A stretch of 64,000 nucleotides of DNA from an uncultured Helicobacteraceae bacterium. Its GTDB lineage: Bacteria; Campylobacterota; Campylobacteria; Campylobacterales; Helicobacteraceae. Each line of letters starts with the position of its first letter. Position 1 is the first letter of the stretch. This document shows, piece after piece, positions 8,980 to 56,039 of the stretch. The stretch is from NCBI GenBank assembly GCA_910578285.1, contig CAJTQL010000002.1:30951-94950 (forward strand), given 5' to 3'. A program made the position numbers and the translations under genes. A model generated the notes under the pieces. That model ran no database searches and had not been told where the DNA came from. It saw nothing but the letters and a program-made list of their open reading frames with translations.

Positions 8980-8990
8980 GGGGGGGGGGG
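8980..8990 (+). repeat. Homopolymeric G11 tract (intergenic, icd/fliI)
   Basis: GTGC-G11-CGGAAT read directly. It lies about 200 bp upstream of the icd start and 157 bp downstream of the fliI stop. Confidence 0.95.
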
Positions 8991-12531: not shown

Positions 12532-13554
12532 ATGGATATGCAACGATTACGTATTGGAGATGCGATCCAATCTGAAGCATTTGAAGAAGAGGCAGTGAAT
12601 GGTGCTCTCGAGAAGGAATTGCGTGAGCTTTGCAATGAGGTTGTGGATAAGGTTAAGGACGATGGCATTCTTGCCACTCCTTTAAATTTTCAAATCTATT
12701 TCGAGCGCTCGCTCGCTGACAAAAGCGAAGAGCTCAAAGAAATGGCGCTCAAGATGTTAAGCCATGGGCAGCAGGTGGGATATGATGATTACATCGACCT
12801 CGAGCGGCATTTGCGCAGCAGTTTTCGGAGTATTAAACAGGTTTTTGATATTGTTGCTGTGATTTATCGCAATCAAGCATTGCTTTATGAGATACTTGAC
12901 AAACGCCTTGCCGAGCTCAAATCGGTTGATAATCCCGTGATATCATGCAATATCGTAACTGATATGGCTATAGAAATCAATCGGCTCAAAGACATCACGC
13001 GCAAGCAGAGCGACCAGCTCAAAATCCTCTACCAGCAAAGTGCAAAAGTGATTAATAGTGCTGACAGCAGCACTGTCTTTGATGCACAATATGGAATCTA
13101 CAATAAGCATTTTATCCTAACAAGTTTAGAAAAAGAAATCACAATGCTAGGACCAAATTATAATGCATCGTTGCTTATTTTGCGGCTTGCTGATAGTATT
13201 GCGAAAGAGATTGGTAATGTGAATGTGCTCAACGTTTTGCAAAACAATATCGCCGAAATCTTGCTCAAAGCATCGCGCAGAAGCGATGTTGTTTCGCATT
13301 ATGAAAATGGTATTTTTGCCATTTTGTTGCGGCATTCAAGCCTTGAAAATGCCCAAGCTGTCTGCAAACGTCTTTTTTCGTTTGTCAAAGGTAGTAGCAC
13401 TTTTATCGACAGCAAGCGTATTACACTCGAAATTAATATTGCAGCTGTGTCCTTGCGTCGTGATAGCGAACCCGAATCTATCATTGCAAGCGGCATTGCT
13501 GCACTCAAGGAATTAAGCACCCAAACATCAGCATTTAAGGTTGTGGGAGGCTAG
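12532..13554 (+). CDS. Coiled-coil protein with a degenerate GGDEF-like C-terminal domain
   Basis: The C-terminal about 160 aa follows the GGDEF topology (DAQYGIYNKHF..., ASLLILRLAD..., RRSDVVSHYENGIFAILLRHSSLENAQAVCKRL..., LEINIAAVSL). The GG[DE]EF signature itself reads YENGIF. Confidence 0.45.
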   Translation: MDMQRLRIGDAIQSEAFEEEAVNGALEKELRELCNEVVDKVKDDGILATPLNFQIYFERSLADKSEELKEMALKMLSHGQQVGYDDYIDLERHLRSSFRSIKQVFDIVAVIYRNQALLYEILDKRLAELKSVDNPVISCNIVTDMAIEINRLKDITRKQSDQLKILYQQSAKVINSADSSTVFDAQYGIYNKHFILTSLEKEITMLGPNYNASLLILRLADSIAKEIGNVNVLNVLQNNIAEILLKASRRSDVVSHYENGIFAILLRHSSLENAQAVCKRLFSFVKGSSTFIDSKRITLEINIAAVSLRRDSEPESIIASGIAALKELSTQTSAFKVVGG

Positions 13555-13556
13555 AG

Positions 13557-14069
13557 ATGTTGGACATTGTATATTATTCTGATAGCTTTTTGCGCAAAAA
13601 GGCGCAGACTGTGCAGAGTTTTGATGAGAATCTCCATGCATTGCTCGATGAAATGTATATCTTGATGATTGAACGCAATGGAGTAGGGCTCGCTGCACCG
13701 CAAGTGCGCCATAGTTTGCGTGCGCTTGTTATCAATTTGCCCGATGAGGAGGGTGAGCAGCACAAAGAGAATCTGCTCGAGGTGCTCAACCCCGAAATTA
13801 TCGAGCATAGTGGGAAGATTCTGTTCAACGAGGGTTGTTTGAGTGTACCTGATTATTATGACGACATCGAACGTAGCGAAAAGATTACCGTTTCTTTTCA
13901 GGATCGATTTGGCAATGCGCACACTCTTGATGCTGAAGGCTATCTCGCTGTGGCACTCCAGCATGAAATCGACCATCTGAACGGAATCTTATTTGTCGAC
14001 CGCTTGCCACTGCTCAAACGCAAACGATTTGAAAAGGCATTCAAGAAACAGCAACGTTGCTCTGCATAG
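13557..14069 (+). CDS. def: Peptide deformylase
   Basis: Motifs GVGLAAPQ, EGCLS and QHEIDHLNG. Confidence 0.95.
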   Translation: MLDIVYYSDSFLRKKAQTVQSFDENLHALLDEMYILMIERNGVGLAAPQVRHSLRALVINLPDEEGEQHKENLLEVLNPEIIEHSGKILFNEGCLSVPDYYDDIERSEKITVSFQDRFGNAHTLDAEGYLAVALQHEIDHLNGILFVDRLPLLKRKRFEKAFKKQQRCSA

Positions 14070-14077
14070 GCGCAAGA

Positions 14078-15598
14078 ATGGGGATTAGCAAGCTTCAGAG
14101 TGCCACAATTTTTGGCTTTGAAGCAAAGATTGTGGATATTGAAGTTGCATTTGTGCGCGGGTTGCCCGCATTTCATATTAGCGGGCTTGCAAATCAATCT
14201 GTTCAAGAAGCCAAACACCGCTCGAGCTCGGCGCTTGCGGCGATTGGATTCCAATTCCCGCCCTTGCGTGTGAATATCAACCTTTCCCCGTCCGACCTTC
14301 CTAAACAAGGTAGCCATTTTGATTTTGGAATCGCTCTGCTCATCGCGCTGCATAGTCTTGAGATTCCGCCATTTTTGCAAGAGACCTATTTCGCGCTTGG
14401 TGAGCTTGGGCTTGATGGCAAAATCAAGGCAACGGAGAGCTGTTATCCCATCTTGCTTGATTTGAGCGCACATCACTACCCGCATATTATTTTTGTTCCC
14501 AAAGAGAATCTCGCGCTTTATCAGCAGATTCCGCATCTAAGGCTCATTGGGCTTGAGAGTCTGCAAGAGGCGCTCGACCTTTTTGCATCTAAAAGCCCGC
14601 TTGATGTCGCCTTGTATCACAATCAGCTCCCATTTGAAACAATCGCTATCAATGGGCAAACATATTATTTTATGCGCGATTTTAAGGAGGATTTTCGCGA
14701 CATCATCGGGCAGAGTGTTGCTAAACGTGCTGCGCTGATTGCCGCAAGCGGATTTCACAATATTCTTTTTGAGGGCAGCCCGGGCTGCGGCAAGAGCATG
14801 ATTGCGCATCGCATGCGCTATATCCTGCCACCGCTTTCTGAAGAGGAGATTTTGAAAAACGCAAAAATGCGCCTTTATGAAAGCGGCAATTTGCAATATT
14901 CGCCATTGCGCTCGTTTCGTTCGCCGCATGCGTCCTCCTCGCGCGCCGCGCTGCTTGGGAGCAGCATTGGCAATGAGTTCAAGCCGGGCGAAATTGCGCT
15001 CGCGACACAGGGGATTTTGTTTCTCGATGAGCTCGCACATTTTCCAACGTCTCTGCTCGAATCACTTCGCGAGCCGCTCGAGAATCATCGATTCACGCTT
15101 TCACGCGCACATCTTAAGATTGAATACGACACCGCCTTTCTGCTTGTTTGCGCGCAAAACCCTTGCCCATGTGGAAATCTGATGAGCAGCGTCCATGAGT
15201 GTCGTTGTTCCGACACAATGTTGTCGCGCTACAAAAATAAACTCTCCGAACCTTTTTGGGATAGAATCGATTTGTATGTGCCCATGCAAGAGATCTCACA
15301 AGAACATCGCGTGGATTCCAAGACATTGTTTGAGCAGGTTTTGCAGGCTTTTTGCTTGCAAAAACAGCGCGATCAGGTGCGGCTCAATGGACATTTGCGC
15401 GATAGCGAGGTCGAGCAATTCTGTGTGCTTGACGAGGAAGCAAGCAACATTCTCACCCAAGCGACACAACGATTCGGGCTCTCGCACCGCGCGAATATCA
15501 AGATTAAAAAAATCGCGCGCACAATTGCTGATTTGGAAGGTTGTGATATTATCACAAAGCTGCATGTGTTCGAGGCACTGTCATATCGGCATCGGTGA
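14078..15598 (+). CDS. comM: ComM/YifB Mg-chelatase-like ATPase
   Basis: Lon-like N-domain, Walker A GSPGCGKS, and a C-terminal ChlI-like region. Confidence 0.88.
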   Translation: MGISKLQSATIFGFEAKIVDIEVAFVRGLPAFHISGLANQSVQEAKHRSSSALAAIGFQFPPLRVNINLSPSDLPKQGSHFDFGIALLIALHSLEIPPFLQETYFALGELGLDGKIKATESCYPILLDLSAHHYPHIIFVPKENLALYQQIPHLRLIGLESLQEALDLFASKSPLDVALYHNQLPFETIAINGQTYYFMRDFKEDFRDIIGQSVAKRAALIAASGFHNILFEGSPGCGKSMIAHRMRYILPPLSEEEILKNAKMRLYESGNLQYSPLRSFRSPHASSSRAALLGSSIGNEFKPGEIALATQGILFLDELAHFPTSLLESLREPLENHRFTLSRAHLKIEYDTAFLLVCAQNPCPCGNLMSSVHECRCSDTMLSRYKNKLSEPFWDRIDLYVPMQEISQEHRVDSKTLFEQVLQAFCLQKQRDQVRLNGHLRDSEVEQFCVLDEEASNILTQATQRFGLSHRANIKIKKIARTIADLEGCDIITKLHVFEALSYRHR

Positions 15599-15614: not shown

Positions 15615-16326
15615 ATGACGCAAAAAGATGATGTAATTAAAGCATTACGTGCCAATGATGGTATGGCGACATTGAGTCAACTCTATGCACTTACGGATAT
15701 TTCGCAATGGAAAACAAAAACACCATATGCTTCTATTCGCCGCATTGTGCAGACAAACGAGGAATTTTTCAGGATTCAACCCGGTCTTTGGGGGCTTGTT
15801 GCACAACAAAAAGAGATTCTCGAAAAAATGCACATTTTAGATAACGGGATTGTACAAGATAATGAATGTACGCATGCGTATTATCAGGGTATTGTGGTAG
15901 AGATTGGGAATGCGCGTGGGTTTGAAACATATATTCCACCACAAGATAAAAATAGATTGTTTGTTCATCAAAAATTGAGTGATATTGCCTCGCTACAAAC
16001 AATGCATACGTTCTCATATCAACATATTGTTGCTAAAGCAAAATATATAGATATAGTTTGGTTTAATGAACGTAAAATGCCTTATGCTTTTTTTTGAGGT
16101 GGAACATTCGACAGATTTTAGAAATTCTCTTAATAAATTTTTCGAGCTTCAAGATTTTAGGGCAAAGTTTGTTATTATCGCTAAGCAGGAGAGATTTGGG
16201 CAATTTCAGAAGATTATTGGGGATTCTATCTATCGCCCTATTCAGAATTTGGTGTCGTTTGCAGATTATGAGAGCATTGTAAAACAATATGAAAAGGAGA
16301 CAATGCGCTATGAAATGGGAATCTAA
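15615..16326 (+). pseudogene. Winged-helix (Mrr_N-like) + PD-(D/E)xK-like nuclease protein, frameshifted at a T8 tract (T7 would give an intact protein of about 236 aa)
   Basis: ORF 15615..16097 ends ...ERKMPYAFF*. ORF 16066..16326 continues ...FFEVEHSTDFRNSL in another frame. Deleting one T from T8 (16088-16095) joins them as ...PYAFFEVEHSTD.... The C-terminal module is paralogous to ORF 16744..17679. Confidence 0.7.
16088..16095 (+). repeat. Homopolymeric T8 tract inside the coding sequence
   Basis: Read directly: GC-TTTTTTTT-GAGG. It sits immediately 5' of the EVEHST motif codons. Confidence 0.95.
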
Positions 16327-16409
16327 AAACTTGGATAATATTATGAAGCCCCACAGAAAAAACTATGCAAGAAGGAGTGAAATTATTGAGCTTTTGATAA
16401 GGGGGGATT

Positions 16410-16727
16410 ATGAGTAAAAATAATCAGCAACAAGATGTAAGCAATAAAAAACATTTAGTTTTAGAAACTTTGCTAGAACGATGCCAGAAACGAAATAATC
16501 TTATTTTTGATAATGATTTAGTCAAAGAGATTTGCAGGGAATATTATTTCGGTAATCCATTTGATGTAACAAAGCTTGATTCTAAGGATAAATTGCCGCT
16601 TTCTTTTTTGACAAAAGATATTTGTTTGTTATATTCAGGCAAAGGTCGCCATCGGTTTGTTCATGGTGTTGATAAGCTCTATCATACCTTTGGACACATA
16701 CAAGATACTATTGAACAAATGTATTAG
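16410..16727 (+). CDS. Hypothetical 105-aa protein
   Basis: ORF preceded by AAGGGGGGATTATG. No confidently recognised domain. AT-rich. Confidence 0.4.
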   Translation: MSKNNQQQDVSNKKHLVLETLLERCQKRNNLIFDNDLVKEICREYYFGNPFDVTKLDSKDKLPLSFLTKDICLLYSGKGRHRFVHGVDKLYHTFGHIQDTIEQMY

Positions 16728-16743
16728 GGGGGATTATTGAATA

Positions 16744-17679
16744 ATGGCAAATCCTTATAAAGAACGAGTATTACATTTATTACAGCAAAAATATGGAACA
16801 ATCAAAAGTCTACCCAAAACACAATCCTTATTTGTTGTTGAATCTTTGAACATTGTTCTCTATTTTCGTTATTCCAAAGTATTTCAACATGGAAAAAATG
16901 GATATAAAACATTTTATGGATTAAGGTTTGAAGATTTACAATTTTTGCAAGGCAAACAAGCGTATATTATTTTTCTAAGTGATATGAATAATAAAAGTCT
17001 CGTTATGCCTTTCAGCCATATTGAACATATTCTGACAGAAACAACCCCGTCTTCAGATTCGCAATATAAAACTTTAATATTTTTTAAAAATACAGGAACA
17101 GAGATTTATATTCCTCAATTTGTAAAATTTAATGCCGAAAGTTATTTGGGACTAGAGTCGCTATTAGAATTTAAAAATAAAAACCTTATTGTTCCAGAAA
17201 TCTCACATACACAGGCACAAATATTTATTGGTGCAATTGGGATCTATAAGGGATTTGATATATTTTATCCAGCGAGTGATAGAATAAAAATTGATTTAGA
17301 TATTATAGACAAAAGAAAAATGAGAAATAATCTACCTTATTTTCATAAAGATGTCCAACATATCATGGAAGAAATAGATTGTATTTGGTTAGATTCTACA
17401 AAGATTATATCACTTTTTGAGATTGAACATTCAACTCCTATCTATTCTGGGTTGTTACGCTTTAATGATGTCAATTTAACTATTGCAAATGTCAATAATT
17501 TTAATATTATTGCAAACAGTGAGAGAGAAAATAAATTTCATAAAGAAATTAATCGTCCTACTTTTAAGCAAAATAATTTAATAGAAAAAGTTTCTTTTAT
17601 GACATATTCCAATTTATACTATTGGTATATGAATTTTAAAAATACAGGAGTAAAGCATGATATATTGTCCAAATTGTAG
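16744..17679 (+). CDS. Hypothetical protein with a C-terminal PD-(D/E)xK-like nuclease module (FEIEHST motif)
   Basis: 311 aa. The C-terminal about 150 aa aligns with gene 15615..16326: HTQAQIFIGAIGIYKGFDIFYPASDR / HAYYQGIVVEIGNARGFETYIPPQDK; IDCIWLD..LFEIEHST / IDIVWFN..FFEVEHST; FNIIANSER..F / FVIIAKQER..F. Confidence 0.55.
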   Translation: MANPYKERVLHLLQQKYGTIKSLPKTQSLFVVESLNIVLYFRYSKVFQHGKNGYKTFYGLRFEDLQFLQGKQAYIIFLSDMNNKSLVMPFSHIEHILTETTPSSDSQYKTLIFFKNTGTEIYIPQFVKFNAESYLGLESLLEFKNKNLIVPEISHTQAQIFIGAIGIYKGFDIFYPASDRIKIDLDIIDKRKMRNNLPYFHKDVQHIMEEIDCIWLDSTKIISLFEIEHSTPIYSGLLRFNDVNLTIANVNNFNIIANSERENKFHKEINRPTFKQNNLIEKVSFMTYSNLYYWYMNFKNTGVKHDILSKL

Positions 17680-17863
17680 GAGCAAAGAATTTATTTCAGA
17701 ACTCAATCAATATAATATACTCGAATTTATAGATGGTGATTTTCGCATTATAAGAACCGAATCTGTTGAGGAATATCGCATCTTTTGTAGAGAATGTGGC
17801 AGGGAATTGAGCAATAAAAATGGGCAAATTATTATTAAAGAGCAAAAATCATACAAAGACTAG
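17657..17863 (+). CDS. Small zinc-ribbon protein (CPNC...CREC)
   Basis: 68 aa with two CxxC pairs (CPNC at 4-7, CREC near 45). Its start overlaps the upstream gene by 23 nt. Confidence 0.4.
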   Translation: MIYCPNCRSKEFISELNQYNILEFIDGDFRIIRTESVEEYRIFCRECGRELSNKNGQIIIKEQKSYKD

Positions 17864-17883
17864 CAGAGGGGCATAAGGGCAGA

Positions 17884-18213
17884 ATGCCTTATTCATGGTT
17901 TTATTTCGATTTGGTCAAAAATGTGAGCAAGGATAAAACATTTCATTCATGCCAGATTCCATTGAAACTTGTCGAAATGCTCATCAAGTCTTGCACAAAT
18001 GAGGGAGATTCTGTGTTTATTCTCTTTGGTGGTAGCGGGGGTGAGATTGTATTATGCGAACAACTCAAGCGGCAATGGATAAGCTGTGAGCTGCATAAGC
18101 CCTATTATGAAATGATACTCGATAGATTGAATAATAAGGGCAGAATCAAAGAAGAATTTAGGATAAGTGCCAGAGAGAAAGGCACAGAGAGGCAGGAGAT
18201 GTTTTTATTATAA
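17884..18213 (+). pseudogene. C-terminal fragment of a beta-class (DPPY-first) N4/N6 DNA methyltransferase
   Basis: HSCQIPLKLVEMLIKSCTNEGDSVFILFGGSGGEIVLCEQLKRQWISCELHKPYYEMILDRL corresponds to the H-P-T-x-K-P...FxGSG(T/S)...E...Y block. The DPPY (motif IV) half is absent upstream. Confidence 0.6.
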
Positions 18214-18304: not shown

Positions 18305-18321
18305 GGGGGGGGGGGTAGAAT
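18305..18321 (+). promoter_or_regulatory. G11 tract abutting a -10-like TAGAAT, upstream of the YaaW-flavodoxin gene
   Basis: CAGC-G11-TAGAAT (G11 at 18305-18315, TAGAAT at 18316-18321). The AAGGAG RBS and the ATG at 18352 follow about 30 nt downstream. Confidence 0.45.
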
Positions 18322-18351: not shown

Positions 18352-19605
18352 ATGGCGTATCAAAACGATACTGGTTTGGACTTTTTAAGTCAATGTGACA
18401 ATGAGCTCTTGGGCGTGCTCGTGGAGATTCTGACAAAGGATAAGGGCGAGGAACGATTCACAGAAACATTAACATTGTCTAATGGATACAAAACGTACCA
18501 CCCAGACCATGTAAAATATTGGCGCGACATCGCGGAAAGCTACCAACGATTTGGCGGCAATACGTTTGTCAATATGGTGCGCGGCGGTGGCGTTTTGTAT
18601 CGGGAGATTCTGTGCGATGTGTGCGACAAGCTCAAGGTGAATTACAATAGAGATGCTTCAATAGATTTTATCGAAATTAATCTATTAAGCAAAATTTTAA
18701 CAGATTCTCTTGCGAAAATGACGACAGAACAACTTAAAGAAATAAGCAATGACTTAGGGCTTAAAAATGTTACAAGTTTTACCCCACAAGCAGTAACAAT
18801 TGCAATACAGGGCGCGATGAAGCTTTCTGGATTTATGGTTTATCAAACGGCTGTGATTATTGCAAATATGATTGCTAGGGCTGTTTTGGGGCATGGCTTA
18901 TCTCTTGCTACCAATGCTGCCCTAACAAGAGTCATAGGAGTCTTTTTGGGACCCATAGGCTGGATTATTACAGCACTTTGGACGGCTTTAGATATTGCTG
19001 GACCGGCATATCGCGTTACGATTCCTGCCACAATCCAAATTGCTTGCATGCGGCAGATAATGAATGCGCCAAAAGAGGAAGTGCCCAATGATGTTTGCAA
19101 AAAGCCCATTGGAATCTTCTATGGCAGCGATGGTGGCGACACGGAAAAAGTTGTCGAACAAATTGCAGAAGAATTGAGGGAATATGTCGATGTCAAGATT
19201 TTTAATGTCGCGCAAGCAAGCAAGAATGATTTGCGCCGATATGAGAATCTCATCTTTGCTTCACCAACCTATGGCGAGGGCGATTTGCAGAGTGATTGGG
19301 AAGATTTTCTACCCAAACTTAGCGCCAGCGATGTTGCGGGCAAAACCATTGCCTTTGTCGGGCTTGGCGACCAAGACAGCTATGGCGAAACGTTTTGCGA
19401 AGGCGTTTCACACATCTATGCTAAACTCGCCTCTAGCGCAAAAGTGATTGGGCAAACCAGCACTGATGGCTACAATTTTGAAAGCAGCAAATCTGTTGTA
19501 CGTGGCAAATTCATTGGGCTGATGATTGACGAAGTTAACCAAGACGACCAAACAGAAAAAAGAATCGCCGCATGGGTCGAAGATGTTGTCTATAAGTTTA
19601 ACTAG
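18352..19605 (+). CDS. Fusion protein: DUF3944/YaaW (UPF0174)-like N-terminal region + long-chain flavodoxin
   Basis: The N-terminal about 250 aa (LDFLSQCDNELLGVLVEILTKDK...WRDIAESYQRFGGNTFVNMVRGGGVLYREILCDVCDKLKV...) is followed by hydrophobic helices. The C-terminal about 165 aa (IGIFYGSDGGDTEKV...FASPTYGEGDLQSDWEDF...FVGLGDQDSYGETFCEG...) is flavodoxin. Confidence 0.7.
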   Translation: MAYQNDTGLDFLSQCDNELLGVLVEILTKDKGEERFTETLTLSNGYKTYHPDHVKYWRDIAESYQRFGGNTFVNMVRGGGVLYREILCDVCDKLKVNYNRDASIDFIEINLLSKILTDSLAKMTTEQLKEISNDLGLKNVTSFTPQAVTIAIQGAMKLSGFMVYQTAVIIANMIARAVLGHGLSLATNAALTRVIGVFLGPIGWIITALWTALDIAGPAYRVTIPATIQIACMRQIMNAPKEEVPNDVCKKPIGIFYGSDGGDTEKVVEQIAEELREYVDVKIFNVAQASKNDLRRYENLIFASPTYGEGDLQSDWEDFLPKLSASDVAGKTIAFVGLGDQDSYGETFCEGVSHIYAKLASSAKVIGQTSTDGYNFESSKSVVRGKFIGLMIDEVNQDDQTEKRIAAWVEDVVYKFN

Positions 19606-19637
19606 ACAACATTTTTGCTGCAATAACGACTAAAGTT

Positions 19638-19669
19638 GCACCTCCGCTGTGTGTCCTTTGTGGAGGTGC
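19638..19669. terminator. Hairpin between convergent genes (candidate bidirectional terminator)
   Basis: GCACCTCC (19638-19645), 16-nt loop, GGAGGTGC (19662-19669). Confidence 0.4.
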
Positions 19670-19736
19670 GTCTTTAGTTGTAGACATTAATAGTATATGC
19701 CCATCAGTTTTTTGTGTGGACATATTATTAGTATTA

Positions 19737-21608
19737 TTAATTTTCCATGTTTTCAATCATCATCTGAACATGTGTTTGATACCATTGATTTCCCCAAAGT
19801 TCTTTGCTAGAAAGTATTTCTTGGAATTTTGGAAAAATATCTTTATATTTTACATGAGATTTGAGGATTCTAATGATATCTTCTGTACTAAGGGGTAAGA
19901 TTTTCATTCCTTTAATATATGTTGTATCATTTTCAAAATAGCAATGGATTCGACTTCTAAAATCATTAATGACATTTTTATCTAAGTATGGCGCAATGAA
20001 TATGCCATAAGTCTTCTCTTGCATTACAGAATTTAGGCTCAATAATAGATTGCCCAAATGTCGTGAAACGCTTTCCATCTCCGCTCTTCTTTGATTGGTT
20101 TTTTCAGTAAGCGTTACTTCAATCATTAGGCTATGGTTATAATAAGAATATACAAAATCAGTATTCCCACCTACTGCATGAGATTTTGGCAAGAGTTGCG
20201 AATCGAGACTTAATCCCGATTCTAAAATCCGTTCGATTTTATTTTCATCAATATAGCACCAAGCAATCGCAATGATATATTCAAAAATGGTAGGAATCGT
20301 TGCTTCAGTTGTCGTTTTTTCATGGATTTTAGAATCATTGTTTCTATCACTAAAGAGTTCTAGTATTTCAATGATATGCTCTCTTGTAAAACGTGTTTGT
20401 AGGAGTTTTTGAAGTTTTTCCTTATCTCTATATTGTTTATAGCTTCTTATGTCTTGTAGATGAGTAATGCCCAATTCTCTAAAGTATTGTTTCATCTCTT
20501 TATCATCAAATAATTCATCTAAAAGATTTTGAGAAACATTACTTTGTGCAATTTGTTTCAAAATTTCTTGATAATTGGAATGTTTTAATATTGTCGAAAA
20601 GATAATATTTAAATCTACTCTGTCTTTGTGAAATTCAAAGATACCAGTGAGATTCAAATATCTACGATTTAAATCCAAATAGTCATTCAAGTTTGCTTGG
20701 ATTCGTGATTCAAAAATAAACCGAAAAAATCTTTTTCCAAATTCTTCTAATGTTCCATCGCAAAAGGCAATCAATTCATTTATTTTTTCTTCCCTCTTGC
20801 TCTTTTTTATTAAATATGGCAAATATAATGTTTTAAAACTTGAATATGCATGTGGGGTGAATAAGTTATGAAAAAACTCAATATTTCTAGTCTTTATAAA
20901 CGGCAAAAATATATTATGGAGAACCTTGACGATTTCTATAGCCGTTTTTTCTCCTTTTGCTGTTTTAAAATATTCTGTCTTTACTGTGTCATTGTATAAG
21001 TCATTTAAAAAATATTCTAACTCTAAATAATGTGGAGTGTTGTGAAGAACGCTCGACATTAATGTATTGTTTTGAATAGCCTCAATGAAATCCTGTGTGT
21101 TTCTAAAGTTGTTTATGAGCGGTAATAATCGAAAAATTTCAATACTTAATTGTCCATTAAAATACCTGAAGGCTTCCAGATATTTAACTAGCAAAGAAGA
21201 ATTATGGTTAAAATTTAATGTGGCTTTGAGAAAAAATAAAGATATTAAATCAATTTGTAAGAATTCATTATTGATTCTATGGCTTTGTGTTTTTATGAGA
21301 TTTAGTAATTCGTAGCCTTGTTGGGTAATGTGTTTTTGTTGGCGATTGATGAGGTTATAGTCTTCTAGCGGAGCAGATTTGACTCTCGCATCTTTTGTGC
21401 CTAAGTCCGCAGTTTTGTTTTTTGATTCTAAGAGATTATGTTGCTCTAAAAGTTCCAAGTATTTTATCTGCAAATCAGAATTGCTACTCCATTTGTCTTT
21501 TTCGTCAGCATTATTGAATAGCTCCTCAAATAAAATCAATTGTGTTTCAAAATTATAGAGTAGATTCTTAACTCTTAAACTCGTGTTCCCAAAATAATCG
21601 TATCCCAT
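19737..21608 (-). CDS. Type IIS restriction endonuclease, AlwI/MlyI/PleI/Nt.BstNBI family
   Basis: 623 aa. The C-terminal block FEYIIAIAW...PKSHAVGGNTDFVYSYYNHSLMIEVTLTEKTNQRRAEMESVSRHLG...GIFIAPYLDKNVINDF...ILPLS parallels the catalytic region of BstNBI-type enzymes as I recall it. It follows two methylase genes. Confidence 0.7.
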   Translation of the reverse strand: MGYDYFGNTSLRVKNLLYNFETQLILFEELFNNADEKDKWSSNSDLQIKYLELLEQHNLLESKNKTADLGTKDARVKSAPLEDYNLINRQQKHITQQGYELLNLIKTQSHRINNEFLQIDLISLFFLKATLNFNHNSSLLVKYLEAFRYFNGQLSIEIFRLLPLINNFRNTQDFIEAIQNNTLMSSVLHNTPHYLELEYFLNDLYNDTVKTEYFKTAKGEKTAIEIVKVLHNIFLPFIKTRNIEFFHNLFTPHAYSSFKTLYLPYLIKKSKREEKINELIAFCDGTLEEFGKRFFRFIFESRIQANLNDYLDLNRRYLNLTGIFEFHKDRVDLNIIFSTILKHSNYQEILKQIAQSNVSQNLLDELFDDKEMKQYFRELGITHLQDIRSYKQYRDKEKLQKLLQTRFTREHIIEILELFSDRNNDSKIHEKTTTEATIPTIFEYIIAIAWCYIDENKIERILESGLSLDSQLLPKSHAVGGNTDFVYSYYNHSLMIEVTLTEKTNQRRAEMESVSRHLGNLLLSLNSVMQEKTYGIFIAPYLDKNVINDFRSRIHCYFENDTTYIKGMKILPLSTEDIIRILKSHVKYKDIFPKFQEILSSKELWGNQWYQTHVQMMIENMEN

Positions 21609-21617
21609 ATAAACTCC

Positions 21618-22547
21618 TTAATAGTTAGTAATTAAGACCTCTGTTGATTCTGTCCTTTTTGTTTGATAGTTGCAATTTTTATAGTTAAATTCTAAAAAAA
21701 ATGTTTTAAAATTTGTGTTTTTCTCGAGCCATTTTTTTAAGACTATATGTTCTTTGCCTTTATGGCAAATAACATTTGAGAGTCCAAAGCGAATTTTTTT
21801 AGAATCTAATATCCTTAAAAATTCAAGCAAATCTAACTCATCTTGCAAGCTCCAAGCTTGATTTTCGTTATATGTCGCAGTTGCTAAAAAATAGGGTGGG
21901 TCAATATAAACAAAACTTTGAGAATCTAAAATGGGGACATCAAACTCCCGAAAATCATTATTGAATATTTCTATATTCTTTTTCTGCAAAGCTATTATAA
22001 AATGTTTGAGTTTTTCTTGCATGTTTGTATTAAAATCTCTTTTGCCACATGGCAGATTAAAATGACCTCTTGCATTGAAACGAATTTGATTGTTGAAGGC
22101 GAAAATAATGAGCACAAATAAATCCAAAGCATTTTTGTGGATATTGTAGCGATTCCTTAATTGTAAAAATTTATCTTTATTAAAGCTTGATAGTCCATTT
22201 TGGCTATTGCATTGATAAAATTCATAGCCCATTTTTGCACTATTAGAAAGCTCAAAAGTAACGATAATATCCCAAATTTCTTCAAAAATCTTTTGCAAAC
22301 TTTGTTTTTGCAATGTTTGATAGATTTGGGTGAGCTGTGTTAAAGAATCGTTTAGGATAATATTGTTGGCTTTTATGTTAATACCTACATTTGCCCCGCC
22401 ACAGAATAAATCCACAGCCGTAGAAATATCTTGTGGGAAAAGTGGCATGATTTGTGGCAAGAGTCTATATTTTCCTCCAGTATAATTTAGAGGGCTTGAA
22501 ATAAAATTTCCTTGCATTTTTAAAGTCAATTCACTTATATTTGGCAT
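21618..22547 (-). CDS. D12-class (Dam-like) N6-adenine DNA methyltransferase, M2
   Basis: PLNYTGGKYRLLPQI, DLFCGGANVG (motif I) and YIDPPY (motif IV). Confidence 0.85.
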   Translation of the reverse strand: MPNISELTLKMQGNFISSPLNYTGGKYRLLPQIMPLFPQDISTAVDLFCGGANVGINIKANNIILNDSLTQLTQIYQTLQKQSLQKIFEEIWDIIVTFELSNSAKMGYEFYQCNSQNGLSSFNKDKFLQLRNRYNIHKNALDLFVLIIFAFNNQIRFNARGHFNLPCGKRDFNTNMQEKLKHFIIALQKKNIEIFNNDFREFDVPILDSQSFVYIDPPYFLATATYNENQAWSLQDELDLLEFLRILDSKKIRFGLSNVICHKGKEHIVLKKWLEKNTNFKTFFLEFNYKNCNYQTKRTESTEVLITNY

Positions 22548-23575
22548 ACAAAAACCCTCTCTTTATGGTCTTTGAATGAAGATTTTCCACTACTGAAAGC
22601 CTTATAATCAAATTCAGCAACGTGTATTGTGCCAACAGAATCTAAAATTTGTTTGATTTCATTTTCTTTTAATCGTGCGTTACTTCTTCCGTTTGCGGTA
22701 TATGTATTATTATATGTCACAACCAAGACCCTGCTCATTTTTGCAAGATTGTCTATCAAATCTCTAAAACTTTGCCTTGCCTCTACCTTGCAATACTTGC
22801 TGATATTTTCTGGCTTTGGTTTGAGTGCCACTCCATATAAATGTGGCTTATCATTTTTGGTAAGCGTTTCGAGTAAATGATAGAATCTTGAATATTGCCT
22901 TGAATTATATGGAGGGTCGATAAAGGCTATGTCAATATGCCGTCTGTGTTCGACGAGCTCTTGGCTTAACATGTTGGAATCTTTTTTGTAAATCTCTATT
23001 TTTGCGTTGCTTTTTATCGGTTCGATGAGTTCAAAGACAAATTTATCCTGCAAGGTAATATTCTTGCGATAGGCATCGTAGTGTCCCACGGTGTTTGCGA
23101 TTCTATCGACACTATAAAGGAGGCTTGCCAAAAGAATCATAAATTCTTGTGGGCAAATTGCGTTTGATTCTAATAATTTATCAAGCTCATCTCTAATAAA
23201 ACCTATCAATCTAGAATCGTTCTCACTAAAAAACTTGCCGCCAAAATGCTTGGAATAATAGTTCGATTCCAAATCTCGTGCTTCTATGCCCCGAAATAGA
23301 GATTGAATCGCCTCTATTTTCTGCCAATCAAACGTTTCTTGAGGAAAGAATGCCTGATAAATGGTAGAGTTGGAATGCAAAAAATCATTCAAGATAAAAT
23401 GCCCAAATTGTGGTTTTTGCATAAAATATGCGCTCACAACACCTGTGCCAGCAAAAACATCAAAAAAGCAAAGATTTTGATATTTAGTATAATCAAAAAC
23501 AGATAATAACGTTTCGTCAATTCTTTCCAATAATTTTGTTTTTGCTCCCGTATAGCGGCGATTGGCAAGTTTCAA
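22535..23575 (-). CDS. D12-class N6-adenine DNA methyltransferase, M1
   Basis: RRYTGAKTKLL, DVFAGTGVV (motif I) and FIDPPYNSRQY (motif IV). TTG start 7 nt after AGGAG. It overlaps M2 by 13 nt. Confidence 0.85.
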   Translation of the reverse strand: MKLANRRYTGAKTKLLERIDETLLSVFDYTKYQNLCFFDVFAGTGVVSAYFMQKPQFGHFILNDFLHSNSTIYQAFFPQETFDWQKIEAIQSLFRGIEARDLESNYYSKHFGGKFFSENDSRLIGFIRDELDKLLESNAICPQEFMILLASLLYSVDRIANTVGHYDAYRKNITLQDKFVFELIEPIKSNAKIEIYKKDSNMLSQELVEHRRHIDIAFIDPPYNSRQYSRFYHLLETLTKNDKPHLYGVALKPKPENISKYCKVEARQSFRDLIDNLAKMSRVLVVTYNNTYTANGRSNARLKENEIKQILDSVGTIHVAEFDYKAFSSGKSSFKDHKERVFVCQI

Positions 23576-51927: not shown

Positions 51928-52063
51928 ATACAAAAAATCCCAATTCCATTTCTATTCCTCTAAAATAAACATTTTTTTTTGCTTTCCCTAGTAATTTAAA
52001 ATTTATCTAAGAATAAAAAGGTATCATTGTATTACATTATAATTTTCTACAAATGGAGTCGCT

Positions 52064-55292: not shown

Positions 55293-56039
55293 TCATGGAG
55301 CCATCATGCTGCTTGCATTATCCTGCGTGCGGGGGGGGGGGGCAGAATGCGTTGTTTTGTTGTCATAGAGCATGACGGCGATGTTGGGCTCGCGCGGCAT
55401 GCGTTCAATGCAATAGACGACTTCAAGCGGCAGCTCAAAGGGCGGCTTGCGCAAGTCAAGCGCACGATATTGCGTGGGCAGAATGTCGGCATTGACATGT
55501 TCGCTAATATCATTTGCAATCAGTGCATAAGTAAACTTAGGGAGAATCGCGATGAAGTCGTGGATTTTTGCATTAGGCAGGTGTTGCAAGACATCTTTGC
55601 AGATGAGTAAATCGGCGGGTTGAATCTGCGCAAAATCACCATTGTAATGCACAAAATTGATGTTTTCTTTTGCATAACGTGCGTTGTTTGCGTTGATAAC
55701 AAAAGACGCGACATCATAGCCTGTATAAGACGCATGTCCCCAATCGATATTCTTTGAAAACTGCCAATCGCCACAGCCGACATCAGCGATTGTGTGAATC
55801 TCGTGTTTGCGCAAAAAGTCTTGCAAAAACATCATATAGCCGCGCAAAAGCCCCTCTTTGCTGCCGCTACCGCTGCCATTGCCCCACATGTTCGTTTCAT
55901 AGACGGTGTCAAAGAGCATGTTCAGATTCTGCGCATTTTGCTTCAAAAGCATGGTTTTGATGAAATCCAGCTTGCTATTTGTTTGCTGCAAGAACATCAC
56001 GAGTTGTTGAAAGAATCGCTCATCAAGTTGCACGGGCAT
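55293..56039 (-). CDS. Class I SAM-dependent methyltransferase
   Basis: Motif I IADVGCGDWQF. Start set at MPVQLDERFF (ATG 56039), overlapping the pseC stop by 17 nt. Confidence 0.75.
   Translation of the reverse strand: MPVQLDERFFQQLVMFLQQTNSKLDFIKTMLLKQNAQNLNMLFDTVYETNMWGNGSGSGSKEGLLRGYMMFLQDFLRKHEIHTIADVGCGDWQFSKNIDWGHASYTGYDVASFVINANNARYAKENINFVHYNGDFAQIQPADLLICKDVLQHLPNAKIHDFIAILPKFTYALIANDISEHVNADILPTQYRALDLRKPPFELPLEVVYCIERMPREPNIAVMLYDNKTTHSAPPPRTQDNASSMMAP
55331..55342 (+). repeat. Homopolymeric G12 tract (C12 on the coding strand) in the 3' end of the methyltransferase gene
   Basis: GTGC-G12-CAGAAT. It encodes ...SAPPPR... 13 codons before the stop. Confidence 0.95.

Follow-up and report, generated by a model that had tools for sequence, protein, structure and literature searches.

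The locus described here raises the question of whether a run of short genes behind comM forms one defence system or is what remains of an older one. The DNA stretch analysed (64,000 nucleotides from an uncultured Helicobacteraceae bacterium; hereafter the window) carries, directly after comM (14057-15598), five co-oriented open reading frames (ORFs), over which the GC content drops from about 50% to 25-33%. An earlier note on this DNA had described these five ORFs, and their positions were confirmed (Table 1): gene A, coding for a winged-helix and nuclease-like protein; a 105-aa ORF (ORF105); a 311-aa protein (ORF311, or X); a 68-aa zinc (Zn) ribbon; and a piece of a beta-class DNA methylase. 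Our analysis identified the locus as the wreck of a type II restriction-modification (R-M) operon, composed originally of a restriction gene R (about 273 aa) and a methylase gene M (about 276 aa) about 8 bp downstream, in which the 3' portion of R and the 5' portion of M have given way to a cassette of two genes, X and the Zn ribbon. The supposition that an older R-M system had been overwritten was therefore correct, but the part removed is the junction between R and M and not, as had been proposed, the front half of the system.

The intact form of the ancestral-type operon was found in two other loci (L185 and L187), where R (273 aa, with the domains DUF6996 and DUF6997) and M (276 aa) are separated by 8 bp. 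ORF105 of the window aligned to residues 5-94 of this R protein and the methylase piece to residues 162-267 of this M protein (both from L185), and X and the Zn ribbon lie precisely between these stumps. An identical order, with the R stump (R'), X, the Zn ribbon and the M stump ('M) following each other, was found in a Cytophagales genome (L021), in Campylobacter vulpis and in C. felis. The stumps are nested: residues 6-214 of R and 90-255 of M are left in L021, 5-94 and 162-267 in the window, and about 50 aa of R and residues 140-255 of M in C. vulpis and C. felis. Since ORF105 corresponds to R residues 5-94 and the R'-X-Zn-'M order recurs elsewhere, it is the stump of a displaced restriction enzyme and not the partner protein it had been taken for.

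ORF105 carries DUF6996 only and no DUF6997, and is not the full two-domain protein of about 265-273 aa (PADLOC PDLC03513 family). A word-indexed homologue search returned 3 relatives of ORF105; it was an exhaustive search that revealed the full-length family, whose members are mostly 250-285 aa long, contain DUF6996 and then DUF6997, and match PADLOC REase_II PDLC03513. A 227-aa ORF located 5' of the X homologue in L021 was 50% identical to ORF105. The methylase piece, first described as the C-terminal part only of a beta-class enzyme, is indeed the last 40% or so of M: motifs X, I, II and III are kept, and the catalytic motif IV region ('DPDY' in the intact M) is missing. This stump is left with the half that binds S-adenosylmethionine (AdoMet; motifs X and I-III) and cannot methylate. 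As it is the only methylase sequence of the locus, the statement that no working methylase is present there was borne out.

Table 1. Features of the locus downstream of comM, in window coordinates.
Feature	Position	Strand	Evidence
Gene A: HARE-type winged helix and NmeDI_C nuclease domain	15615..16326	+	ORFs; precomputed PF27126 match; PADLOC REase_II PDLC03534, 6e-9
T8 homopolymer disrupting gene A	16088..16095	+	sequence; T7 in intact alleles
AGGGGGGATTAT 12-mer, copy 1; overlaps the ribosome-binding site and start codon of ORF105	16400..16411	+	exact match
R' (ORF105): N-terminal stump, DUF6996 only, of a type II restriction endonuclease of about 273 aa	16410..16727	+	Pfam DUF6996, 3.8e-11
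Candidate sigma-70-like near-consensus promoter, TTGACA-16-TATATT, with TG	16608..16635	+	11/12 consensus positions
AGGGGGGATTAT 12-mer, copy 2; spans the R' stop codon, just 5' of ORF311	16726..16737	+	exact match
ORF311 (X): Hjc-like degenerate PD-(D/E)xK N-domain (tentative) and NmeDI_C	16744..17679	+	PF27126; PADLOC REase_II, 6.7e-13; AlphaFold2
Zn ribbon, 68 aa, four Cys (two CxxC pairs)	17657..17863	+	ORF call; 23-nt overlap with the end of ORF311
'M: 109-aa C-terminal piece of a 276-aa beta-class methylase	17884..18213	+	PF01555, positions 148-219 of 221; PADLOC PDLC03337, positions 165-261 of 264

The R stump is flanked by an exact 12-bp direct repeat, AGGGGGGATTAT, which had been noticed near the ORFs at 16410 and 16744 and was found exactly twice in the window, against 0.07 matches expected. 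The repeat may be a recombination scar or a common ribosome-binding module. The promoter candidate of Table 1, proposed from its consensus match alone, lies inside the R stump, about 110 nt 5' of X. A terminator scan found none downstream of the methylase stump.

The C-terminal paralogy of gene A and X over about 150 aa, reported from the letters alone, was supported by BLASTP (29% identity over 149 aa, E=7e-10) and by profile-profile comparison (probability 99.1%, E=6.9e-19, 177 columns); two paralogous nuclease modules are indeed attached to different N-terminal domains. The common module had been considered impossible to place in a named family. It corresponds to Pfam PF27126 (NmeDI_C), which, according to precomputed Pfam annotation, is matched by the 160-aa piece of gene A, by X and by every listed homologue. 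Both proteins also matched positions 173-323 of the PADLOC type II restriction endonuclease model PDLC03534, the 351 positions of which equal the length of R.NmeDI. No NCBIfam match was obtained for gene A, ORF105 or ORF311.

R.NmeDI is a 351-aa type II restriction enzyme of Neisseria meningitidis that recognises RCCGGY and cuts 12/7 nt off on both sides, and its gene overlaps the end of the methylase gene nmeDIM (PMC2095814). That the cuts fall at a constant distance to either side of the site suggests that the cutting module is separable. The catalytic residues of the module were invariant in both families, D212, E226 and E228 across 41 relatives of X, and D146, E161 and E163 across 25 relatives of gene A. 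An aspartate followed by E-x-E is the BamHI-type variant of the PD-(D/E)xK active site, so the E-x-E-H signature, at first regarded as unusual, is not exotic.

The module occupies residues ~152-297 of X and is preceded by an N-terminal domain (N-domain) of residues 1-150. AlphaFold2 modelling of X gave a confidence (pLDDT) of 88.5, and the N-terminal 150 aa were modelled confidently. When the N-domain alone was compared with the PDB using Foldseek, the best matches were Hjc, RecU, PvuII, NhoI and the nuclease domain of SPARDA, with probabilities up to 0.97 (Hjc), TM scores of 0.44-0.57 and E-values all at or above 0.02. Neither the full model nor the N-domain model gave a PDB match at E<=1e-3, and sequence searches of solved structures with ORF311, the ORF311-family profile and the gene A profile returned nothing meaningful. 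These Foldseek matches point, tentatively, to a PD-(D/E)xK-like fold for a domain that had been called unrecognised. It lacks the canonical acidic triad, and may be a degenerate nuclease fold that now serves in DNA binding or dimerisation.

The structural resemblance to the Hjc and RecU resolvases could also mean that X is a housekeeping nuclease of DNA repair or recombination, for instance a junction resolvase, and that its association with R-M genes is incidental. Many X loci do lie among housekeeping genes, and the family is very highly conserved, with a mean column identity of 63%. A housekeeping role is nevertheless highly improbable given the patchy distribution of X (262 of 185,579 GTDB species genomes), its clear horizontal transfer, the R-M remnants present in 29 of 80 loci and the missing acidic triad of the N-domain.

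Gene A is turned off in the strain of the window by a single extra T in a homopolymer (T7 to T8). The T8 run splits the gene into two ORFs, 15615-16097 and 16066-16326 (+1 frameshift), and deletion of one T restores a 236-aa protein reading ...AFFEVEHST... T8 is present in the window and in L001; in L017 and L018 the run is T7 and the 236-aa gene is intact and 97% identical to that of the window. The frameshift, also recognised in the earlier note, represents a genuine allele rather than an error of sequencing, since the same 160-aa allele is present on 28 public contigs; it is either phase-variable or fixed in a single lineage. The winged helix-turn-helix domain of gene A had been called Mrr_N-like. 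It appears to be HARE-type instead, as indicated by a weak Pfam HARE-HTH match (E=0.061, under the Pfam cut-off) and by a single homologue bearing the UniRef name 'HTH HARE-type'.

The X family comprises 1121 cluster representatives of about 305 aa, with PF27126; the GTDB species genomes containing relatives belong to at least 15 phyla and are mostly metagenome-assembled genomes. Neighbourhoods were analysed for 80 species-level GTDB loci. A beta-class methylase remnant adjoins X in 29 of these, and not one of the 29 is intact: the most complete, in L064, lacks about the last 50 aa, and that of L092 is frameshifted. No methylase is adjacent in the remaining 51 loci. In a distant clade of X, an N-terminal methylase piece (TSPPYN, PDLC03299/03230 type) ends at variable positions immediately 5' of X, the gap ranging from -59 to +30 nt. 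BglII-family enzymes follow X in 10 loci (Pfam 1.6e-34), and a truncated BamHI-family enzyme precedes it in 1 locus. Many of the other X loci lie among housekeeping genes such as dapA, truB, recO and lipA. A search of phages gave no matches, and the only plasmid matches were at the level of the domain, with NmeDI-like 'type II restriction endonucleases' of Acetobacteraceae.

A conserved protein of about 266 aa, with no Pfam or PADLOC match, was seen directly 5' of X in L020, L022 and L024, the latter two of which also carry a C-terminal methylase stump after X. This protein may be an undescribed restriction enzyme.

Gene A belongs to a separate family of about 1490 representatives of about 236 aa, found in Campylobacter, Helicobacter, Neisseriaceae and many gut Firmicutes. 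Among 72 metagenomic loci, gene A relatives lie between hsdS and hsdR in 11, adjoin DpnII genes in 6 and are followed by a small DpnD/PcfM-like ORF in 12 (Pfam 1.2e-7). In Helicobacter cinaedi a gene A relative has the N-terminal half of a DpnII enzyme on one side and a methylase tail of 79 aa on the other. Gene-A-like proteins adjoin X only in L025, L034 and L181. Gene A and X are thus separate units with a common habitat and occasional linkage, and the idea that the five ORFs form one system was not upheld. PADLOC gave only generic REase_II and MTase_II matches to the window components, and no named multi-gene system.

The best-supported reading, which keeps the core idea of the earlier note, is that solitary nucleases have overwritten the R-M system: two of them, both lacking a methylase, would have replaced a classical R-M system and would be modification-dependent. 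We give this reading a probability of about 0.5. A linked intact protecting methylase, by which type II R-M systems are defined, was found neither at the window locus nor in the 29 methylase-adjacent X loci. The absence of a cognate methylase, a type IV character, holds for X at the level of the locus, and for the relatives of gene A the picture is mixed. With X intact, its catalytic residues invariant, its ratio of nonsynonymous to synonymous change (pN/pS) at 0.02-0.18 and its linked methylase always broken, X is unlike a classical type II enzyme. Since the nucleases have stayed intact with no methylase to protect the host, it is most probable that they cut only DNA carrying a foreign modification, which would spare the host genome according to the logic of type IV and type IIM enzymes. 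The N-terminal domain would select the target, near which the NmeDI-type domain would then cut, in the manner of R.NmeDI (12/7 nt on both sides), and both nucleases would act without a cognate methylase. The cassette of X and the Zn ribbon would spread across species through homologous recombination at the R and M stumps and beyond, and the methylase stump would be retained as an accessory protein.

Several observations do not sit easily with solitary, modification-dependent nucleases. The N-domain of X is no known reader of modified bases (SRA, EVE, YTH or winged helix); its weak Foldseek matches are to a nuclease fold. Intact BglII-like enzymes adjoin X in loci with a truncated methylase or none (L030, L037 and L038), so hosts of enzymes without a linked intact methylase must protect themselves in some other way. 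An intact Dam-type methylase is encoded directly 5' of gene A relatives in 6 loci, and also beside one in L181, and other relatives adjoin an intact DpnII enzyme; these neighbours fit an ordinary type II role for at least part of the gene A family. Purifying selection on the methylase stump, described below, is also not predicted by a simple model in which the stump is a scar.

The same neighbours bear on whether X itself could be an ordinary type II enzyme, a successor to the displaced one that is restrained by a methylase encoded elsewhere in the genome. The NmeDI_C domain derives from a genuine type II enzyme, PADLOC assigns the two window proteins to REase_II, methylase genes of a single class recur in linkage with X, and some gene A relatives have the intact Dam-type methylases just mentioned. 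We consider this distinctly unlikely, as none of the 29 adjacent methylases is intact and 51 of the 80 loci have none adjacent. R-M systems usually decay in the reverse order to losing a linked methylase while keeping the nuclease.

Comparison of related loci indicated that the cassette has moved recently. Between the window and L017/L018, X showed 0-1 differences in 936 nt and the Zn ribbon 0.5% differences, and the flanks were far more diverged (12-14% in comM, 24% in jukA-fldA); intermediate values were obtained for ORF105 (about 1%; 0.9-1.3%), the methylase stump (2.1%) and gene A (3.5%). Between C. vulpis and C. felis, X differed by 1.4% and the Zn ribbon by 1.3%, against 8-14% for the flanking genes, and the R stump was 14% divergent and frameshifted. 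Such near-identical islands between diverged flanks imply recent horizontal exchange by homologous recombination. Exchange of this kind is plausible in naturally transformable Campylobacterota. The trio of X, Zn ribbon and methylase stump was found at three different chromosomal sites, the third being within a his operon in L181.

L181 (2452-7420; a metagenome contig, ERZ926288) is a compact defence island in its own right: the trio is followed by a gene-A-like 249-aa protein, with the catalytic motif EVVD in place of EVEH, by an intact Dam-type methylase (292 aa) and by a GmrSD type IV enzyme.

Such mobility could also be that of a selfish homing-type cassette, X and the Zn ribbon cutting and copying themselves into R-M genes without benefit to the host. 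The cassette is found nested within the R and M genes of three or more types of R-M system, and it has sharp boundaries and forms cross-species islands of near-identity. Its insertion points in the methylase do not mark a single defined target site, however, and vary widely: the break-points of methylases preceding X fall at hidden Markov model (HMM) positions 59 to 297, and those of methylases following it at about 72 to 280. Numerous copies are surrounded by housekeeping genes without any R-M remnant, there is no intron or intein context, and recombination followed by deletions explains the pattern equally well; a homing cassette is therefore very unlikely.

Purifying selection acts on the methylase stump, which showed, between C. 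vulpis and C. felis, 12 nonsynonymous and 24 synonymous differences (pN/pS 0.12, binomial p=7e-10), and between C. vulpis and L181 a pN/pS of 0.18 (p=8e-14). The stump is joined to the Zn ribbon by the same 26-nt overlap in C. vulpis, C. felis and L181; the truncation is therefore older than their divergence.

This selection, in a stump whose frame has stayed open, is what would be expected if X, the Zn ribbon and the stump were one three-gene system with the half-methylase as a non-catalytic subunit, which could serve in AdoMet sensing, in target finding or in blocking incoming methylases of the same family. The common Zn-ribbon junction, the movement of the trio as a whole and the contrast with the adjacent R stump, which decays like a pseudogene, agree with such a system. 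Stump lengths, however, vary among loci (198, 172, 139, 137, 128, 113 and 109 aa), most members of the X family have no C-terminal methylase piece, and in the distant clade N-terminal pieces stand 5' of X instead. Moreover, the window and L017 stumps differ by 4 nonsynonymous and 3 synonymous changes, which is not significant, and half of a Rossmann-type fold may fail to fold alone. We regard a three-gene system as unlikely. The multi-gene idea of the earlier note survives in this reduced form, the stump being possibly a working part of an X and Zn-ribbon unit; the five-ORF version does not.

An extension of it, to which we give little credence, is a new three-part module of X, the Zn ribbon and a dead AdoMet-binding stump kept by selection as a subunit, possibly attacking the N4-methylcytosine or N6-methyladenine of the overwritten R-M systems (BamHI/BglII-type and PDLC03337-type). 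If so, the module would act as an 'anti-R-M' restriction enzyme, and new modification-dependent reagents might be derived from it.

The Zn ribbon, a double-CxxC protein as first described, overlaps the 3' end of ORF311 by 23 nt, and from this arrangement its translation is probably coupled to that of X. Its PADLOC match was weak (PDC-M13A, 0.004). Homologous small ORFs follow the X homologue in C. vulpis, L008, L010, L021, L027 and L181. By HMM, the Zn ribbon was detected in 3 of the 80 species-level loci, all in the closest X subclade, and it was rejected as a universal partner of X; linkage of X with this small neighbouring ORF, about which the earlier note had asked, is confined to that subclade.

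In seven distant loci (L029, L035, L036, L039, L045, L055 and L074) a Cys-free ORF of about 75-83 aa overlaps or abuts the end of X, in the position taken by the Zn ribbon in the close clade. It has the motif NPDYDETG and belongs to no detectable family; a DpnD-like identity was rejected (hhalign probability 0.2).

Other features of the window lie outside the wrecked operon. The ORF at 18352-19605 (+), 417 aa, encodes a JukA-like domain (PADLOC JukA 5.5e-71; Pfam DUF3944 and Ubiq_cyt_C_chap) fused to a long-chain flavodoxin, FldA (NCBIfam 1e-61). The jukA-fldA fusion is also present in L017 and L018, there with an additional acidic linker. A poly-G run at 18305-18315, 37 nt 5' of this ORF, is G11 in the window and in L018 and G10 in L001 and L017; its length thus differs among otherwise near-identical contigs, and it may be a phase-variable promoter or leader. 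Further long runs in the window are G11 at 8980, G12 at 55331 and T9 at 51972.

A second, apparently intact R-M island, with a GC content of 27-34%, lies at 19737-23575 (-). It contains a 623-aa restriction enzyme of the AlwI family (Pfam 2.2e-44), after which come two ORFs (309 and 346 aa) that have DPPY motifs and look Dam-like by eye alone. L017 and L018 are non-homologous to the window over 19606-20600, with about 58% mismatches. Between clpP and def, at 12532-13554 (+), a 340-aa ORF gave only a weak GGDEF match (precomputed Pfam, L001).

Two large sets of 'hypothetical proteins', one with more than 1100 representatives and one with about 1490, become through this analysis concrete candidates for solitary NmeDI-domain nucleases that repeatedly overwrite R-M systems. 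If they are modification-dependent, they would widen the type IV/type IIM repertoire and would show turnover of defence loci by cassette replacement in the naturally transformable Helicobacter and Campylobacter. That a half-methylase should be kept by purifying selection was not expected, and no function has been described for it.

Among known systems, R.NmeDI shares its C-terminal domain with both window nucleases (PF27126 and PDLC03534) and differs from them in an unrelated N-terminal half and in having an intact overlapping methylase gene, which the window locus lacks. BamHI and BglII have a D...ExE or ExQ active site; the window signature is the BamHI-type variant of PD-(D/E)xK, and genes of both families recur as neighbours of X; X itself, however, has no detectable match to the BamHI or BglII Pfam families.

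Recombination has put the hrgA gene in the place of hpyIIIR in an R-M locus; hrgA is without a consistent partner methylase and codes for an N-terminal winged helix followed by a PD-(D/E)xK domain, the architecture of gene A (PMC3045609). The H. cinaedi relative of gene A, too, is found at an R-M locus, within a broken DpnII-type system. Gene A was nevertheless rejected as hrgA itself: hrgA proteins are 310-320 aa long and belong to Pfam DUF511 (PF04373), to which neither gene A nor ORF311 gave a match at E<=1. The hrgA locus also keeps its methylase gene intact, whereas in the window both R and M are truncated.

In Streptococcus pneumoniae, the methylase-less DpnI cassette and the classical DpnII R-M cassette swap at one locus through flanking homology. 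The window resembles this arrangement in having a methylase-less nuclease at an R-M locus, and many gene A relatives are followed by the DpnD/PcfM-like ORF, although gene A and X of the window have no such partner. DpnI has another domain order and belongs to another family, and its dependence on methylation is proven, whereas that of the window nucleases is inferred.

The winged-helix fusion type IV endonucleases are described as solitary proteins joining a winged-helix reader to a cutting domain, with a methylase rarely adjacent; most of their families cut near but outside the site, and HARE-HTH domains contain an additional helix and may recognise modified cytosine rather than modified adenine (PMC11037411). 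The study makes no mention of NmeDI, Helicobacter or Campylobacter and does not cover the window family. Gene A, too, is solitary and joins a winged-helix type domain to a cutting domain.

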